Shown here one piece after another: positions 3,171 to 35,833 of a DNA stretch of 64,000 bases. The DNA is taken from NCBI GenBank assembly GCA_041662965.1, contig JBAZRI010000004.1, forward strand, positions 7,305-71,304, in the 5' to 3' direction. A program made the position numbers and the translations under genes. The notes beneath the pieces were generated by a model. That model worked only from the letters and a program-made list of their open reading frames with translations. It made no database searches and was not told the origin of the DNA. This DNA comes from Patescibacteria group bacterium. Its GTDB lineage: Bacteria > Patescibacteriota > Patescibacteriia > Patescibacteriales > GWC2-42-12. The first letter of the stretch is position 1. Each line of letters opens with the position of its first letter.

Positions 3171-3959
3171 CTATTTTGGCGACGTCTGAGATTGAAGTCT
3201 TTTTTTTATAAAACTGCCGGCATAAGCTATCACCAGAGATACCAAGCAAGCAGCAGCTAAGAATACAAAATAAATTACTGGCGCTTCGTATCTTTCGGAT
3301 AGAAACACGTTTGCAGATAAACCTACCAACACGCCTGTTGACCCCATCAGTAGCCTGCTCGGCATCTTGTTTTCAATCGTGCCAGCTAACCAGCCAAGAA
3401 ACACGCCAATAACCGCCACTATACCTATACTAGTAAGAAACGAGTCAATAGCAGCAATGGCCGTCTCTATTATAACTATAGCAAGTAAGCAGCCGTAAAA
3501 TAAAAAAAGATTACGAATTTTCATTCCTATTGACAAGCGATTAATTATGCTTACTGTTAAAATAAAAATCGCAGACATTAAAAGGACATTGCTTAAAATA
3601 AAATCAGATTTTATTTCGGTTCGAGGAATTTTTGAACTGCTCCATCCAGTTGCCGGTCCGTAGCTTATCGCACTGTCCGAGTATTCCCTTTTTACTTGGA
3701 CAGGAAAGCTAAAAATAAATGTTGTTTTTTCTTTTTTTCCTTTAACCACGATTTTATCGCCGAAGCTACCTTTTACAAGTCTGTCTGCGTCTTCCGGTGA
3801 GAGTCCTTTAGGCACGTTGGGAATTCTTTTTATTTCTTTTATTTCGGTAATGATAAGCGTGCCGTTTTCTAACGACACCTCCTCCTTCGCTTCCGCCGGC
3901 AAAATAACAAAAACAATAGACAAAAACACAACCGCCAAAACCGCCAGAATTCTTTTCAT
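3171..3959 (-). CDS. Membrane protein, function unknown
   Basis: Signal/anchor MKRILAVLAVVFLSIVFVILPAEA followed by several C-terminal TM helices. Start taken at the second Met. Confidence 0.7.
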   Translation of the reverse strand: MKRILAVLAVVFLSIVFVILPAEAKEEVSLENGTLIITEIKEIKRIPNVPKGLSPEDADRLVKGSFGDKIVVKGKKEKTTFIFSFPVQVKREYSDSAISYGPATGWSSSKIPRTEIKSDFILSNVLLMSAIFILTVSIINRLSIGMKIRNLFLFYGCLLAIVIIETAIAAIDSFLTSIGIVAVIGVFLGWLAGTIENKMPSRLLMGSTGVLVGLSANVFLSERYEAPVIYFVFLAAACLVSLVIAYAGSFIKKRLQSQTSPK

Positions 3960-4112: not shown

Positions 4113-4928
4113 TTATTCAACTATGAAGCCATCAACTTTAATCTTGCCGTTAAATTGGCTAGCCGCTCGCTCGGCGATTTCTTTTAACTCATCAAGCTGC
4201 TTTTGATTATTAGCCGAAACCACGATATAGAAAGGATTGTCTTTATCAAACCTTTCGCCAAAACCATGGTCGCCTAAAGGAATTTTGGCCAGTGTAACCA
4301 GCTCAACTTCCTGATCTTTTGGATTAAAACCAAGATCCGGACCGCTGCACATAAAGCCGGCCGGCAATTCCGGCAAAGCCGACGGATTAAACTTGCCCGT
4401 ACCGTCAAGGTAAATCGCCCGTTCGTTATGCATAGTGTTAAGCATTTTGGTATGCTCATACTCCGCCCCTAGCCTTCTGGCTAGCTCTTGGCTGTAGTAG
4501 ATGCCCAGCTCGTCCGAAGTATTAACGCCTTCAGGCAGCTTTTCGCCAGCCGCCTGCATCAAATCAAACTTTATTTTCGCGGCGCCGCAGTGATCATGGC
4601 TCTTTACTTTTTTTATCTTGCCCTTATTGGCGAGAATAAACTTTTCCAGTTTAGTTTGATCTTTACTCTTGTCGAACATGGAATCAAAAAAAAGAAGAAT
4701 ACCATTCCCGGCTGTGCCCAGGCGATGTTCATCCTCGTCGCAGATTCTACCGTCACTACAACCTGCCACCTCGGATTTTTCGGCAAAAGCTTCAGCCGTA
4801 TCAAGCTGGCTCATTATTTCCGCCACGCTCTTCCCGGCCTTTAACCCCCTAATAAATTCCAATTTTTCTGATTCTTCCCAAAGGTTTTGTGCCTCTTCGG
4901 CGTGGCTTTTGGTTTGCTCGTTATTCAT
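4113..4928 (-). CDS. Hypothetical protein with beta-carbonic-anhydrase-like CxDxR / HxxC motifs
   Basis: CSDGRI and SHDHCGAAK motifs. The start at MNNEQTK is supported by the SD AAGGGGGAG 8 nt upstream. Confidence 0.7.
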   Translation of the reverse strand: MNNEQTKSHAEEAQNLWEESEKLEFIRGLKAGKSVAEIMSQLDTAEAFAEKSEVAGCSDGRICDEDEHRLGTAGNGILLFFDSMFDKSKDQTKLEKFILANKGKIKKVKSHDHCGAAKIKFDLMQAAGEKLPEGVNTSDELGIYYSQELARRLGAEYEHTKMLNTMHNERAIYLDGTGKFNPSALPELPAGFMCSGPDLGFNPKDQEVELVTLAKIPLGDHGFGERFDKDNPFYIVVSANNQKQLDELKEIAERAASQFNGKIKVDGFIVE

Positions 4929-6929: not shown

Positions 6930-7901
6930 TTATTCCGCTAAAGCATTCGCTCCCGCGCTAATTTCCGCTATTTCCGCCGTAATGCTGGCTTGTCTGGCTT
7001 TATTGTATGATAAGGTCAATTCATTCACCATGTCCCCGGCCGCGTCCGTGGCCTGATGCATGGCCGCCATGCGCGCCGAATGTTCGGAGGCGTTAGACTC
7101 TAAGAGCGCCTGATAAAGCTGGATTTCAATCAAACGGGGCAGCATCTGGTCCAAAACTTCTTCCGGGCTGGGTTCAAAAACATATTCATAATTAAATTGT
7201 CCGCTTTGCAAATATTTCTTTTCCTTCTGTTCTACGAATTCTTTATCCAAGCCAAGCCTGGTGTCTTCGCCAACTATGCCCAAAGCATCGTCAATTTTAT
7301 CAATTTCTATGGGCAAAATTTGCTTAACTCTGGGAATTTGCTTTGACGAGCTGACAAAATCCGTATAAGCCACCATAACTTTATCATACTGGCCGCTTAA
7401 ATATTCGCCGATAACTAAATTGGCTACCGGCACGATTTCGTTGACCTCGCTGGCTAAATCAAGCTTGGGGAAATCAGCCGTAATCGTTTGGCCGTGGCGG
7501 CTGATGGCCGCGCCCTTTTTACCGACTAAAATAAATTCCGCTTCTATTATCGTCTGCTCGCCCATGGTTTGATATTTTTTAATTGACTCGTGCACTTTAT
7601 TGATAATCGCCGCGTTAAAACCACCGCACAGCCCGCGGTTGGAAGTAATTAAAATAATGCCGACTTTCTTGATTTCTTTCCTTGGAGTTAAAAGCTGGTG
7701 CAGCGGCTGATTATTGCTGTTTGCCGACCGGGACAAATTCAAAACCGTCAGCCAGCTTAAATTAGCGTAAGTCCTGGTACGCAGCACGGCTTCAATGGCT
7801 TTGCGCATTTTTGACGCCGCCACCATTTCCATGGCCTTGGTGATTTTTTTGGTATTGCCGATGGATTTTATTCTGTTTTTTATATCTCGGCCTGATGGCA
7901 T
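6930..7901 (-). CDS. atpG: F1 ATP synthase subunit gamma
   Basis: KKITKAMEMVAASKMRKA N-terminus and ITAEIAEISAGA C-terminus. Confidence 0.95.
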   Translation of the reverse strand: MPSGRDIKNRIKSIGNTKKITKAMEMVAASKMRKAIEAVLRTRTYANLSWLTVLNLSRSANSNNQPLHQLLTPRKEIKKVGIILITSNRGLCGGFNAAIINKVHESIKKYQTMGEQTIIEAEFILVGKKGAAISRHGQTITADFPKLDLASEVNEIVPVANLVIGEYLSGQYDKVMVAYTDFVSSSKQIPRVKQILPIEIDKIDDALGIVGEDTRLGLDKEFVEQKEKKYLQSGQFNYEYVFEPSPEEVLDQMLPRLIEIQLYQALLESNASEHSARMAAMHQATDAAGDMVNELTLSYNKARQASITAEIAEISAGANALAE

Positions 7902-9959: not shown

Positions 9960-10448
9960 TTACCTTATCATTTTTTTAATCATTTCCCTATCTTTTTTTT
10001 CATCAATTTTTTCGCCTAAAATCTTCTCCACCGCCGCAATAACCAAATCCGCCGCTTCTTTCTTTATTTCTTTTAAAGTAATTTCTTTTTCTGTCTGCAT
10101 TTTCTGTTTTTCCTGGTTGATAATCGCCCCGATTTCTTCTTTGGCGCGCGCGATCATCTCCTGTTTACGCGCGTCGGCGTCAACCGCGGCTTTCTCTAAA
10201 ATAATATTGGCTTGCTGCTTGGCTAGAACCATGGCTTTATTGAATTCCGCCTGCGTCTCGCTTAATTTTTCTTCAACTTTTTTCGCGTCTAAAAGCCCTT
10301 TTTCAATTTTAGCCGTTCTCTCGGCCATAACGCGGGCTATGGGCTTAAAAGCAAACCAATACAAAACCGCGAACACAATGGCAAAATTAACCATCTGCGC
10401 GATTATCAATTTAACGTCAATGTGGAATGTTTCTATCAAATTTTCCAT
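9960..10448 (-). CDS. atpF: Fo ATP synthase subunit b
   Basis: Single N-terminal TM helix followed by a long charged helix; operon position. Confidence 0.85.
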   Translation of the reverse strand: MENLIETFHIDVKLIIAQMVNFAIVFAVLYWFAFKPIARVMAERTAKIEKGLLDAKKVEEKLSETQAEFNKAMVLAKQQANIILEKAAVDADARKQEMIARAKEEIGAIINQEKQKMQTEKEITLKEIKKEAADLVIAAVEKILGEKIDEKKDREMIKKMIR

Positions 10449-10812: not shown

Positions 10813-10914
10813 TAGTTGGCCTGAATTTGTAAAATTTTCGTGCGAGGACTGTTTGAGCTTCGCGGCAGCGAAGCGAGTTCCGCAGTAGAAAATTTTTTAA
10901 ATTCAGGCCAACTA
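10813..10914. ncRNA. Copy A of a ~100-nt conserved-core hairpin element (candidate structured RNA or mobile hairpin)
   Basis: Outer stem TAGTTGGCCTGAATTT/AAATTCAGGCCAACTA; invariant blocks AAATTTTCGTGCGAGGACTGTTTGAGC and GCGAGTTCCGCAGTAGAAAATTT; apical stem GCTTCGC-GGCA-GCGAAGC. Located in the atpB-atpE spacer. Confidence 0.6.
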
Positions 10915-10945: not shown

Positions 10946-11872
10946 CTAATGCTCCTCTTCTACCGTGTTCATAGATAAATATGCTAAAATCAAAACCGCG
11001 AAAATAAAAGCTTGGACTAAGCCGACGATTATTTCTAAAAACATAAAGGGAATGGGCAAACCGAAAGCCAATAAGGCCGACATGGAGGCGAGCAATACTT
11101 CGCCGGCGAAAATATTGCCGAAAAGACGAAAGGACAGGCTGGCGACTTTGGCCGCTTCGCCGACGATTTCTATCAAGCCGACGAATACTTTAATCGGGTT
11201 GACGAAAATAATCGCCGGATCCTTAATGACTTTCTTGGGTATTTCCAGCAGGGCTTTGATATTTATGAATTTATTTATATATTTCCAAAAGCCTAAAGCG
11301 ATTACGGAAAAAATATGGCTGAAAACCACGCCGATAATGGCTAGGGCTAAAGTGGTATTTAAATCAGCCGTGCCGCCGCGGAAAAAAGGAATAAAAACTT
11401 TTTCGCCATGTTCGGCCGCTACTTGCCCGATTGAACCGACACCGGGCAAAAGACCGAGCCAATTATTCAATAAAATAAAAACGAAAAAACTTAAGACAAA
11501 AGGAAAATATTTTAAAGTCTTCGGCCGCGAACCGGTTACCGAATCAAATATGTCTAAAAGCATTTCTATAACCGCCTCCACCGCGTTCTGAACGCCTTTG
11601 GGCACAAGCTTGATTCTTGATCTTAAAAATAAGCCGAAAATAACCACCAATAAAACTACCAGCCAAGTATTAAGCAGAGAATTGGTTATGGGGAAATTAT
11701 GGAATTTAAAAATCTGCTCGGAGAATAAAGTGCTCTCCGTCTTTATCTCGTTAAATTGTTCGCTGCTGTGAGCTCCGGCTTCGCCGGATTTAACGGGGTA
11801 AATCTCGGAAGGCGTTGCCTGAATTTCAGTTTCAGCGGCCGCTGGCGGCAATATCATAAGATAATAAAACAA
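10946..11872 (-). CDS. atpB: Fo ATP synthase subunit a
   Basis: Multi-TM protein with the LSFRLFGNIFAGE motif. The exact start is uncertain (M1 or M6), and the N-terminal ~50 aa include a translated repeat. Confidence 0.9.
   Translation of the reverse strand: MFYYLMILPPAAAETEIQATPSEIYPVKSGEAGAHSSEQFNEIKTESTLFSEQIFKFHNFPITNSLLNTWLVVLLVVIFGLFLRSRIKLVPKGVQNAVEAVIEMLLDIFDSVTGSRPKTLKYFPFVLSFFVFILLNNWLGLLPGVGSIGQVAAEHGEKVFIPFFRGGTADLNTTLALAIIGVVFSHIFSVIALGFWKYINKFINIKALLEIPKKVIKDPAIIFVNPIKVFVGLIEIVGEAAKVASLSFRLFGNIFAGEVLLASMSALLAFGLPIPFMFLEIIVGLVQAFIFAVLILAYLSMNTVEEEH
11747..11798. repeat. CCCCGTTAAAT-type palindromic element inside the atpB 5' coding region
   Basis: CTCGTTAAAT...TCCGGC-TTC-GCCGGA...ATTTAACGGGG; translates in frame as YPVKSGEAGAHSSEQFNE. 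Confidence 0.7.
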
Positions 11873-12281: not shown

Positions 12282-12433
12282 ATACATTATATTTTTTGAA
12301 AATATTAAAAACTTTTTTTGAAAAAGTTTTTAAAAATTCTAGAAAATATTCAAGGGCGATGCCGTCCTTGAATTTTTTCTATTTATAAACAGTTGCCCAC
12401 TTATTTTATACAGCAAAATTGAAAAATAGTCAA

Positions 12434-12485
12434 CCCCGCGAAATCCGCTTTTGCGAAAATTCGTTCGCGAATTTATTTAACGAGG
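12434..12485. repeat. Intergenic copy of the CCCCG..AAAT / ATTTAACG.GG palindromic element
   Basis: CCCCGCGAAATCCGCTTTTGCGAAAATTCGTTCGCGAATTTATTTAACGAGG. Confidence 0.6.
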
Positions 12486-12513
12486 CCAACCCGGTTAAAA
12501 ATCTGGCTATAGG

Positions 12514-22161: not shown

Positions 22162-22965
22162 CTATTTTCCCACTATCACCACAAACTCCCCTTTTTGGTC
22201 ATTAGTACTGGCTTTTATTTTTTCAATAATCCGATTAATCTCTCCGCGATAAACCGTTTCGTGCATTTTTGAAAGTTCGCGGCAGACTACGACTGAAGTT
22301 AAATTTATCGGCTTATTTTCCAATTCGCCCTTTTTATTCATTTCCGTATTTTCTTCGGCCGCTTTTTTCAATTCTTCAAGAAAATGCACTATCCGATGCT
22401 TTGATTCATAAACTACCGCCGGATAATCGCTTTTTAAAATGCGCCGGATAAAAGTCTGCCGGCCCTTTTTATGGGGCGGAAAACCCATAAAAATAAATTT
22501 ATCGGTTGGCATGCCGGAAATTGACAGCGAAGCGGTTACGGCCGAAGGGCCGGGCACGGATTCTATTTTTACCCCGTTAAATAATTCCGCCTCCGGCGGA
22601 ATTCCGGCAGAGCCGGATTTAACGGGGTGAACAGCATCTTCGTTTGTTGCTATACCGAATTCTTCAATAACTCGTTGGATTAATCTTCCGCCCGGGTCGG
22701 AAATTCCCGGTGTGCCGGCGTCGGAAACTAGCGCTAAATTTTTTTCGCTGGATAATAAATTAATCACCTCTTCCACCTTATTTTCGCTGGAATGCTGATG
22801 ATAAGAAATGGTTGGCGTATTAATTTTATAATGCGCCAGCAATTTCCTGGTAACGCGCGTATCTTCGCATAAAATAAAATCAACTTCGCCTAAAATGCGA
22901 AGCGCTCTTAAACTTATATCTTCTAAATTGCCGATCGGCGTGCCAACGATATATAAAGTTGCCAT
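22162..22965 (-). CDS. rsmI: 16S rRNA (cytidine1402-2'-O)-methyltransferase
   Basis: LYIVGTPIGNLEDIS, CEDTR, DAGTPGISDPG and VPGPSA motifs; carries a 28-aa repeat-derived insert. Confidence 0.92.
   Translation of the reverse strand: MATLYIVGTPIGNLEDISLRALRILGEVDFILCEDTRVTRKLLAHYKINTPTISYHQHSSENKVEEVINLLSSEKNLALVSDAGTPGISDPGGRLIQRVIEEFGIATNEDAVHPVKSGSAGIPPEAELFNGVKIESVPGPSAVTASLSISGMPTDKFIFMGFPPHKKGRQTFIRRILKSDYPAVVYESKHRIVHFLEELKKAAEENTEMNKKGELENKPINLTSVVVCRELSKMHETVYRGEINRIIEKIKASTNDQKGEFVVIVGK
22570..22653. repeat. In-frame palindromic element inside rsmI
   Basis: CCCCGTTAAAT (22572-22582) and ATTTAACGGGG (22617-22627) flank the nested hairpins AATTCCGCC-TCC-GGCGGAATT and CCGGC-AGA-GCCGG. 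Encodes IATNEDAVHPVKSGSAGIPPEAELFNGV. Confidence 0.8.
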
Positions 22966-30078: not shown

Positions 30079-30182
30079 TTGGCTCCGCGAATAATGGCAA
30101 ATTTTCGTGCGAGGACTGTTTGAGCCCGCCAGCGGGCGGGCGAGTTCCGCAGTAGAAAATTTGCTGTTATTCGCGGAGCCAA
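30079..30182. ncRNA. Copy B of the conserved-core hairpin element
   Basis: Outer stem TTGGCTCCGCGAATAA/TTATTCGCGGAGCCAA; same invariant blocks as copy A; apical stem GCCCGCC-AGCG-GGCGGGC. Confidence 0.6.
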
Positions 30183-35731: not shown

Positions 35732-35833
35732 AGGCTGGGTTATATTTAGAAAATTTTCGTGCGAGGACTGTTTGAGCCCCGCAGTAGCGGGGCGAGTTCC
35801 GCAGTAGAAAATTTACTAAATATAACCCAGCCT
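35732..35833. ncRNA. Copy C of the conserved-core hairpin element
   Basis: Outer stem AGGCTGGGTTATATTTAG/CTAAATATAACCCAGCCT; same invariant blocks as copy A; apical stem GCCCCGC-AGTA-GCGGGGC. Confidence 0.6.

Follow-up and report, generated by a model that had tools for sequence, protein, structure and literature searches.

A family of roughly 60-bp palindromic repeats with a copy lying in frame in rsmI of a Patescibacteria bacterium

Repetitive extragenic palindromes (REPs) and the related REPINs are mobilized by RAYT transposases, which are enzymes of the Y1 HUH type, and REPs are extragenic and usually form species-specific families. For the attC sites of integrons, the core consensus is RYYYAAC ... 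GTTRRRY. The Rickettsia palindromic elements (RPEs) are about 150 bp in length, fall into ten families, are found only in Rickettsia and include dozens of in-frame insertions in housekeeping genes (PMC10969869). Occasional in-frame fusions with host open reading frames (ORFs) are also on record for the miniature transposable elements with inverted repeats known as MITEs (PMC10969869). The present analysis concerns a palindrome within the methyltransferase gene rsmI, located on a 64,000-nt stretch of DNA from a Patescibacteria group bacterium (assembly GCA_041662965.1, contig JBAZRI010000004.1, positions 7,305 to 71,304), hereafter referred to as the window. An initial annotation of this DNA had described the palindrome and drawn the parallel to RPEs. 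The segment at 22568-22631 is very probably a dispersed palindromic repeat that was inserted in frame and is read through. The family to which it belongs consists of non-autonomous palindromic repeats of roughly 60 bp, each a discrete DNA unit that is present or absent at homologous sites. No description of the sequence, or of such palindromic elements in Patescibacteria, was found in the literature searched, and the family is apparently undescribed before.

The RsmI protein of the window matched the Pfam family TP_methylase (E = 4.9e-28) and E. coli RsmI (PDB 5hw4; E = 1.2e-40). The latter alignment covers residues 1-105 and 131-265, and about 25 residues are without an E. coli counterpart. 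An identical protein, P0001, is recorded in the NCBI, JGI, ENA and Logan sources. The inverted repeat with its two enclosed hairpins, lying in frame in rsmI, was found by repeat search at the place where it had first been described. The perfect inverted repeat is 11 bp long and spans 22572-22627, with CCCCGTTAAAT at 22572-22582 and ATTTAACGGGG at 22617-22627. Together with the flanks, the arms reach 15 nt (22568-22582 and 22617-22631) with a complementarity of 93%. Read on the plus strand, 22568-22631 comprises TTTA, CCCCGTTAAAT, a 9-bp hairpin, a 5-bp hairpin, ATTTAACGGGG and TGAA, in that order. The window has two occurrences of the pattern CGTTAAAT-N20-50-ATTTAACG; the expectation derived from 100 shuffles was 0.00. 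The 64-nt segment folds as a three-way junction with no unpaired junction nucleotides, both as DNA of the plus strand (-26.2 kcal/mol, z = -8.5) and as RNA of the mRNA strand (-36.9 kcal/mol, z = -6.0); in either case, none of 200 shuffles was as stable.

Filled and empty rsmI alleles show that the inserted unit measures 60 bp (the 56-nt core plus 4 nt), at 22568-22627 or 22572-22631, and corresponds to RsmI residues 113-132; the 84 bp and 28 residues proposed initially are revised to 60 bp and 20 residues. The encoded insert, HPVKSGSAGIPPEAELFNGV, is read from the minus strand. The remaining eight residues, IATNEDAV, are part of a loop whose length varies here: it is extended in this lineage, and some relatives without the element have it extended as well, with a comparable stretch, GVGTMHTSPV, in the element-free protein P0035. 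Two pairs of sister proteins fix the boundaries at residue resolution, namely EKFGGEV[YPVKSRSAGIPPEAELFDGV]KIES vs EKFGSEVKIES and EKLGGEV[HPVKFGSAGIPPEAELFNGV]KIES vs EKLNGEVAIES. At the DNA level, the filled allele of L125 reads GAA GT[T TAC CCC ... GGG GT]A AAA and the empty allele of L126 reads GAG GTG AAG. The same behaviour was seen for filled L127 and empty L128, and the ambiguity of the rsmI junction is 1-2 nt at most. A possible remnant of the element (TAAC..GTA) in the empty allele of L001 was judged coincidental, the 11-residue loop being the general element-free state.

The ends of the inserted peptide are the DNA arms themselves, since PVK is encoded by CCC GTT AAA and FNG by TTT AAC GGG. 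PVK..FNG is the only frame that is open at both ends of the element. The second frame reads TPLN...LTG and usually meets TGA or TAA in the flank, and the third contains TAA. In the AlphaFold model of the window protein, residues 106-128 have pLDDT values below 50 and no secondary structure. They are flanked by a helix (94-103) and a strand (132-137) and come just ahead of the conserved VPGPSA motif. For the insert, a disordered loop at the surface is predicted, lying between the N-terminal domain's last helix and its last strand, and a surface-loop position, as foreseen initially, agrees both with the low pLDDT of this stretch and with E. coli RsmI, which has no equivalent.

The extent of the family was determined by scanning one genome per species (596 Gb) with the pattern CCCCGTYAAAT-N25-50-ATTTRACGGGG, which returned at least 120 loci against an estimated 3.5 or so chance matches. 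The counts that follow cover 123 distinct copies among the matches listed. The ends of the family are conserved as TTYA-CCCCGTYAAAT...ATTTRACGGGG-TRAA. An interior consisting of two perfect hairpins, GC-rich in Patescibacteria, is present in 55 of the 123 copies, mostly from Patescibacteria and Omnitrophota, compared with 4% of shuffled interiors. In the remaining copies, mostly from the WOR-3/Stahlbacteria group, the interior is about 40 nt of AT-rich sequence that is little structured, and the outer stem is longer (GACGCAGATT...).

The sequences of the hairpin stems vary between copies and the pairing is always kept. Across 12 copies of equal length, 96.8% of cells pair and 12 of 26 pairs are changed on both sides, a result that none of 500 shuffles equalled; this set was picked for folding, and it is the number of pairs changed on both sides that carries meaning. 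Covariation extends to the outer stem, with left GTC accompanying right GAC in eight copies and mixed states in three. Loops are 3 nt long in 86 of 110 hairpins, 68 of these 86 are closed by a C-G pair, and GAA/TTC and AAA/TTT dominate. Such a design, with a three-nucleotide loop and C-G closure, is typical of stable DNA mini-hairpins and not of RNA hairpins. Of the 54 copies whose flanks are standard, 44 combine a TTTA arm with a TTCA arm, giving T.G on one strand and C.A on the other, and the element consequently has a polarity.

A copy was regarded as intragenic when it lay within an ORF of at least 180 aa. By this definition 23 of the 123 copies are intragenic, all of them preserve the frame of hosts that are unrelated proteins, and no frame-breaking copy was seen inside genes, which bears out the original remark that insertions keep the frame. 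The core length is 2 mod 3 in all 23 intragenic copies vs 43 of 100 elsewhere (Fisher p = 1e-7), and the PVK..FNG frame is used by 19 of the 23. About a third of the two-hairpin copies (19/55) are intragenic. DNA polymerase I (PolA) carries copies in three genomes at three different positions, and the copy in EF-G lies inside the G domain, just ahead of the DTPGH motif. Further hosts are the wedge domain of RecG, UvrB, a PurF-like amidotransferase (GATase), a radical-SAM enzyme and a polysaccharide deacetylase, and atpB carries a copy in its N-terminal region in both the window and L003. With respect to host genes, 26 copies are in the opposite orientation and 13 in the same; so mild a bias argues against an obligatory RNA role on the sense strand.

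A 30-aa query against 1.84 billion representative proteins gave one real additional host, P0121, and two spurious matches. P0121 is a proline/lysine-rich protein of 693 aa and unknown family with two separate modules, VHPVKSDEVGISPKAKLFNRV and IDPVKSREAGIPPEEELFNRV, and is an example of how copies can build up within one protein. With a profile of doubled modules, only 11 short hypothetical ORFs were retrieved out of 122 candidates. Tandem pairs with unrelated interiors, exactly 4 nt apart, occur in L072 and in rsmI of L004, and this exact spacing points to an insertion site that is set by the element's own boundary. The L004 pair, at 10324-10430, adds 37 residues at the same RsmI loop (YPVKSPLKRGAEQFYGV and NPVKSRSAGITPEAELFDGV).

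A relaxed arm scan found exactly three copies in the window, against 0.05 expected. They were scored with a covariance model built only from copies of other genomes, which gave 64.4 bits for the rsmI copy (22568-22631), 44.5 bits for a copy in atpB (11742-11802) and a marginal 15.4 bits (E = 0.15) for an intergenic copy (12430-12489). Related copies had been reported initially at 11747-11798, in the 5' region of atpB, and at 12434-12485. Both are real by the arm scan, the second being marginal by the covariance model, but the first lies in frame inside the atpB ORF (10946-11872, minus strand), where it is read as YPVKSGEAGAHSSEQFNEI, and not merely in a 5' region. The atpB copy has an intact orthologue in atpB of L003 (9679-9728), and the intergenic copy has one at the same intergenic position in L003 (8947-8998).

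The history of the rsmI copy was followed in the 119 closest full-length RsmI homologues. An insert at the same site, with the motif xPVKS...(L)F[ND]GV, is present in 11 and absent from 108. Judging from this distribution, the insertion is old and patchily inherited, and is not private to the genome in which it was first noticed. All five carriers that were read at the DNA level are palindromic; an orthologue sharing the segment without palindromic DNA was not seen among them. In a neighbour-joining tree constructed after masking of the loop, the 11 carriers fall at scattered positions, and each is usually sister to an element-free protein. A single interior is common to all 11, which indicates one insertion lineage. 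Relatives that share the rsmI insertion are about 75-85% identical in protein sequence, and most other relatives are without it.

The window, L001 and L003 are about equally related (84-86% identity in MetRS and 90-92% in a neighbouring 550-aa protein), and L004 is an outgroup with the element plus its second copy. L001 is without an rsmI copy, but the family occurs at another locus of its genome (L093). In L003, each of the three window copies has an orthologue at the corresponding position. The rsmI gene looks like a mosaic: for most of its length the window sequence (22162-22965) shares 87-100% identity with L001 (10001-10729), but in a stretch of about 150 nt surrounding the element L003 (3594-4397) is the closer match (89-96%, vs 68-76% for L001). 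This small sample suggests that homologous recombination of the flanking tract shuffles presence and absence at rsmI, the tract having brought the element in or taken it out.

Orthologous elements are 83-98% identical overall and 75-100% identical at third codon positions, vs 72-83% and 48-68%, respectively, in the rest of rsmI. The differences within the element are largely paired, as in GTT/AAC to GTC/GAC and CCGGC/GCCGG to CCCGC/GCGGG; the compensatory CCCGC/GCGGG variant is found in the orthologous copies of L004 and L125. The element tree separates {window, L003, L127} from {L004, L125} and is compatible with the host tree. Thus, vertical descent under a pairing constraint suffices, and repeated re-insertion is not required. 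The conservation above that of the host gene can be read as a constraint for continued mobility, as hairpin-templated correction or as a host function.

Patescibacteria lineages among the matches listed are Moran-, Parcu-, Yanofsky-, Taylor-, Portnoy-, Doudna-, Levy-, Sacchari- and Gracilibacteria. The other lineages listed are Omnitrophota and, as metagenome-assembled genomes (MAGs), WOR-3, Stahlbacteria, Cloacimonadota, Zixibacteria and Bacteroidota; the family is not restricted to the lineage of the window but spans several candidate phyla. The pattern had no match in 2.9 million viral contigs, and a phage origin is unsupported. CAZGKM01, a MAG with the label 'Gammaproteobacteria', is the same assembly in which the Patescibacteria-like locus L001 lies. 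Several MAGs labelled 'uncultured Gammaproteobacteria bacterium' combine Patescibacteria-type genes with the two-hairpin element (L001, L093, L006, L021, L045, L047, L098 and L109), and these records appear to be taxonomically mislabelled; among them, L093 and L001, the locus of P0004 (a close relative in RsmI), belong to the one assembly CAZGKM01. Covariance-model matches bring some 8-kb loci to 3-4 copies. In the Omnitrophota MAG AUK068, there are 3-4 copies per 7-8 kb, vs three per 64 kb in the window. The coordinates of these and other features are collected in Table 1.

Table 1. Positions of the rsmI element and its parts, of the other window copies and of selected copies elsewhere (window numbering unless a locus is named)
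Feature	Position	Strand	Basis
rsmI, 16S rRNA C1402 2'-O-methyltransferase, intact host gene	22162-22965	minus	267-aa ORF
Palindromic element with both 4-nt flanks, TTTA + 56-nt core + TGAA (plus strand)	22568-22631		60-bp allele difference, covariance model, fold
Left terminal arm TTTACCCCGTTAAAT, outer stem P1	22568-22582		Repeat search; arm common to family matches
Right terminal arm ATTTAACGGGGTGAA, outer stem P1	22617-22631		Pairs with left arm save one T.G
Inner hairpin, 9-bp stem AATTCCGCC-TCC-GGCGGAATT	22583-22603		Repeat search and folds
Inner hairpin, 5-bp stem CCGGC-AGA-GCCGG	22604-22616		Repeat search and folds
Second copy, partly decayed, in frame in N-terminal region of atpB	11742-11802		Arm scan, 44.5 bits
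Third copy, degenerate, intergenic, between tatD-like gene and atp operon	12430-12489		3 arm mismatches, 15.4 bits
Long-stem variants near promoter-like sequence	L073 ~6950-7010; L101 ~4610-4660; L104 ~3620-3670; L113 ~1955-1990		
Copies in Omnitrophota MAG AUK068	L049: 545-608, 2476-2539, 4643-4704, 7330-7376; L083: 2877-2940, 3654-3717, 4568-4631		

The WOR-3/Stahlbacteria group has a long-stem variant of the form GACGCAGATT-TA-CCCC...GGGG-TGAATCTGCGTCC. About 15 nt further on, 3-4 of six aligned copies show a sequence resembling TTTTTCCTTGACA-N17-TATAAT. In these bacteria the repeat either carries a promoter or lands beside promoters. The window also contains a second, unrelated repeat family with three copies, at 10813-10914, 30079-30182 and 35732-35833. 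Its core of about 64 nt consists of AAATTTTCGTGCGAGGACTGTTTGAGC, a covarying 5-6-bp hairpin and GCGAGTTCCGCAGTAGAAAATTT, and is surrounded by an outer stem of 18-20 bp whose sequence is different in every copy. This second family has no Rfam match and resembles structured RNA or another mobile hairpin. Neither a tRNA gene nor an Rfam family (Rfam 15) at gathering score was found at window positions 1-64000, and at a permissive threshold only chance-level matches (E >= 1) were found at 22400-22800.

The family may have spread, in the past or at present, as DNA by a structure-dependent route without target duplication. Movement via a single-stranded hairpin is the likeliest form of such a route, but a tentative proposal. 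As in REP/RAYT or IS200/IS605 elements, the folded single strand would be handled in trans by an enzyme whose gene lies elsewhere. Insertion would take place beside a TTYA tetranucleotide that is left intact, which would explain the 4-nt spacing of the tandem pairs. Patchiness at the rsmI site would be due to loss together with homologous recombination of the neighbouring tract, and the unusual conservation would arise because the pairing of the hairpins is constrained, whether for mobility or by hairpin-templated correction, and not because the peptide is. As a hypothesis, TTYA-adjacent insertion fits the junction data. A strict polar version, with TTCA as target and TAAA as element end, fits the junctions in rsmI, PolA (L048), atpB (L003) and L037 and the tandem in L072, but the L004 tandem has no clean fit and this version is not asserted.

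The more far-reaching proposal, of a novel class of mobile elements, is speculative and is put forward with still less assurance. Such a class would be marked by the conserved 15-nt arms and by an interior that is conserved in structure only; it would move as a single-stranded DNA hairpin, would be common to Patescibacteria, Omnitrophota and candidate phyla of the FCB (Fibrobacteres-Chlorobi-Bacteroidetes) group and would employ a structure-specific nuclease or recombinase for insertion beside TTYA without target duplication. It would persist for very long in essential genes through actively maintained pairing, possibly with a role in the host. At rsmI, no target-site duplication of 3 nt or more was found, as judged from one insertion site and three non-independent filled/empty pairs. 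An autonomous partner was sought at 124 loci (about 0.9 Mb), and no pair of ends 0.1-6 kb apart enclosed a transposase-like ORF; only neighbouring or tandem small copies were found. Among 1,693 clustered ORFs, no protein family was enriched near copies, and the only ones to recur were housekeeping families, namely a GspE-like ATPase, EF-G, an ABC transporter and IleRS.

Several observations weigh against the interpretation of the rsmI palindrome as a mobile repeat that is translated with its host. No Y1/HUH transposase was found in the 0.97 Mb around copies, by an HUH motif scan and by tblastn with an approximate IS608 TnpA query. No recent transposition was caught, since copies within a genome differ in their interiors and no near-identical pair of genomes differed only by a copy. 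Conservation above that of the host gene is not predicted for a decaying selfish remnant and leaves room for a function at the host level. Translation of the insert is inferred from frame statistics, and the choice of the covariation set for folding inflates the percentage paired. Also, MAG labels are imperfect, and the breadth across phyla rests mainly on MAGs of WOR-3, Stahlbacteria, Cloacimonadota and Omnitrophota.

A rather unlikely alternative regards the element as chiefly a structured nucleic-acid module with a function, retained by selection for the host, its presence inside genes being incidental. It could serve as a protein-binding or a replication/priming hairpin in DNA, or as a stability or regulatory structure in RNA. 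The 15-nt arms are identical across several phyla and the stems covary, as would suit such a module, yet no Rfam family matches it. The fixed T.G/C.A asymmetry of the stem implies that one strand matters, but copies stand in both orientations to host genes (26 opposite, 13 same). Orthologous rsmI copies are more conserved than their gene, synonymous sites included; against this, most orthologues dispense with the rsmI copy altogether, and the copies at 11742-11802 and 12430-12489 are decaying. Several WOR-3/Stahlbacteria copies do lie about 15 nt upstream of a TTGACA-N17-TATAAT-like promoter, whereas others occupy arbitrary loops of unrelated proteins, including three positions in PolA.

It is improbable that the family consists of ordinary MITEs, that is, of elements whose terminal inverted repeats are bound by a DDE transposase encoded elsewhere and which move by cut and paste with a short target duplication. 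A hallmark of MITEs is present, namely terminal inverted repeats of 11-15 bp that are conserved around a variable interior, and there are many copies per genome. The filled and empty alleles, however, leave a junction repeat of 1-2 nt at most and no duplication of 3 nt or more. The TTYA/TRAA flanks could reflect a preferred AT-rich target, but these 4-nt flanks are mutually inverted and are not direct repeats. No longer element with the same ends was found in about 0.9 Mb, and the perfect, covarying inner hairpins are unneeded for DDE transposition.

Selection of the insert as a lineage-specific peptide of RsmI, with the DNA palindrome as a by-product, is very hard to sustain, even though 11 homologues share the site and a similar sequence, KS[GR]SAGIPPEAELF. 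The DNA module is also found between genes and in proteins unrelated to RsmI, third codon positions keep an identity (75-100%) that a peptide constraint does not explain, and the stem changes are compensatory in DNA though they alter residues (G to R, N to D). In addition, the insert is predicted to be disordered and 108 of the 119 close homologues are without it. Removal of the element from the rsmI transcript, in the manner of an intron or a processed intervening sequence that leaves the protein unchanged, is scarcely credible: rRNA genes of this bacterial group are known to contain intervening sequences and the mRNA strand has a very stable fold (-36.9 kcal/mol), but all 23 intragenic copies keep the frame and avoid stops, which would be needless under excision, a ribozyme core would find no space in 60 nt without unpaired junction nucleotides, and there is no Rfam match.

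The genomes of Patescibacteria are streamlined and among the smallest of bacteria, and have nonetheless tolerated and long kept a selfish-looking 60-bp palindrome in such constrained genes as those of EF-G, DNA polymerase I, UvrB and RsmI. The occurrence of selfish DNA within protein-coding genes, so far a curiosity of Rickettsia, is extended in this way to a large part of the bacterial tree. The conservation of the ends across phyla should make the responsible enzyme findable by phylogenetic profiling. In the annotation of MAGs, the inserts split domain matches, inflate loop lengths in alignments and create spurious small ORFs; the signature PVK...FNG(V) allows them to be masked. The hairpins with three-nucleotide loops are also a natural data set for the maintenance of palindromes in coding DNA.

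Among known systems, attC sites are similarly recognisable by structure while their sequence is variable, and the arms GTTAAAT and ATTTAAC fit the attC core consensus. An integron attC site was rejected, however, since the boxes are in the opposite order on both strands (GTTAAAT ... ATTTAAC) and neither cassette arrays or ORFs nor an integrase lies nearby. GTTAAAT presumably also matches the XerD arm of E. coli over its outer 7 nt, and both agreements are mentioned here as a lead only.

Like Correia/NEMIS, ERIC, Nezha and BOX elements, the family is small and non-autonomous and has terminal inverted repeats and many copies. It differs from bacterial MITEs in that no target duplication or parent insertion sequence was found (in about 1 Mb, a provisional result), in being much shorter than most of them and in having an interior that is constrained by pairing. 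With REP/REPIN and IS200/IS605 elements, it shares short GC-rich hairpins, a conserved tetranucleotide at the foot of the stem (here TTYA/TRAA, in most copies), strand polarity, many dispersed copies and the lack of target duplication. Structure is likewise conserved over interior sequence, and adjacent insertions have a fixed spacing. In contrast to REPs, this family is often intragenic (19/55 two-hairpin copies), is without a GTAG-type motif and has ends that are conserved across phyla; also, no RAYT or TnpA gene was found near copies (0.97 Mb, approximate TnpA query).

The likeness to RPEs lies in short non-coding palindromic repeats that are found in frame in unrelated housekeeping genes of a bacterium with a reduced genome (for RPEs, PMC10969869). 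Both are read through as an extra peptide compatible with the fold, both are also intergenic and neither has a known transposase (for RPEs, PMC10969869). The present element differs in its length of 60 bp, in its occurrence in other phyla, in its 15-nt cross-phylum ends and in its two covarying mini-hairpins. The resemblance would thus be functional only, and membership of the RPEs is not claimed, since length, architecture and host phylum differ. A sequence relationship to RPEs is not expected. The parallel drawn in the initial annotation is sound in the sense of 'works like', with the same module lying in frame in unrelated proteins as well as in intergenic DNA.

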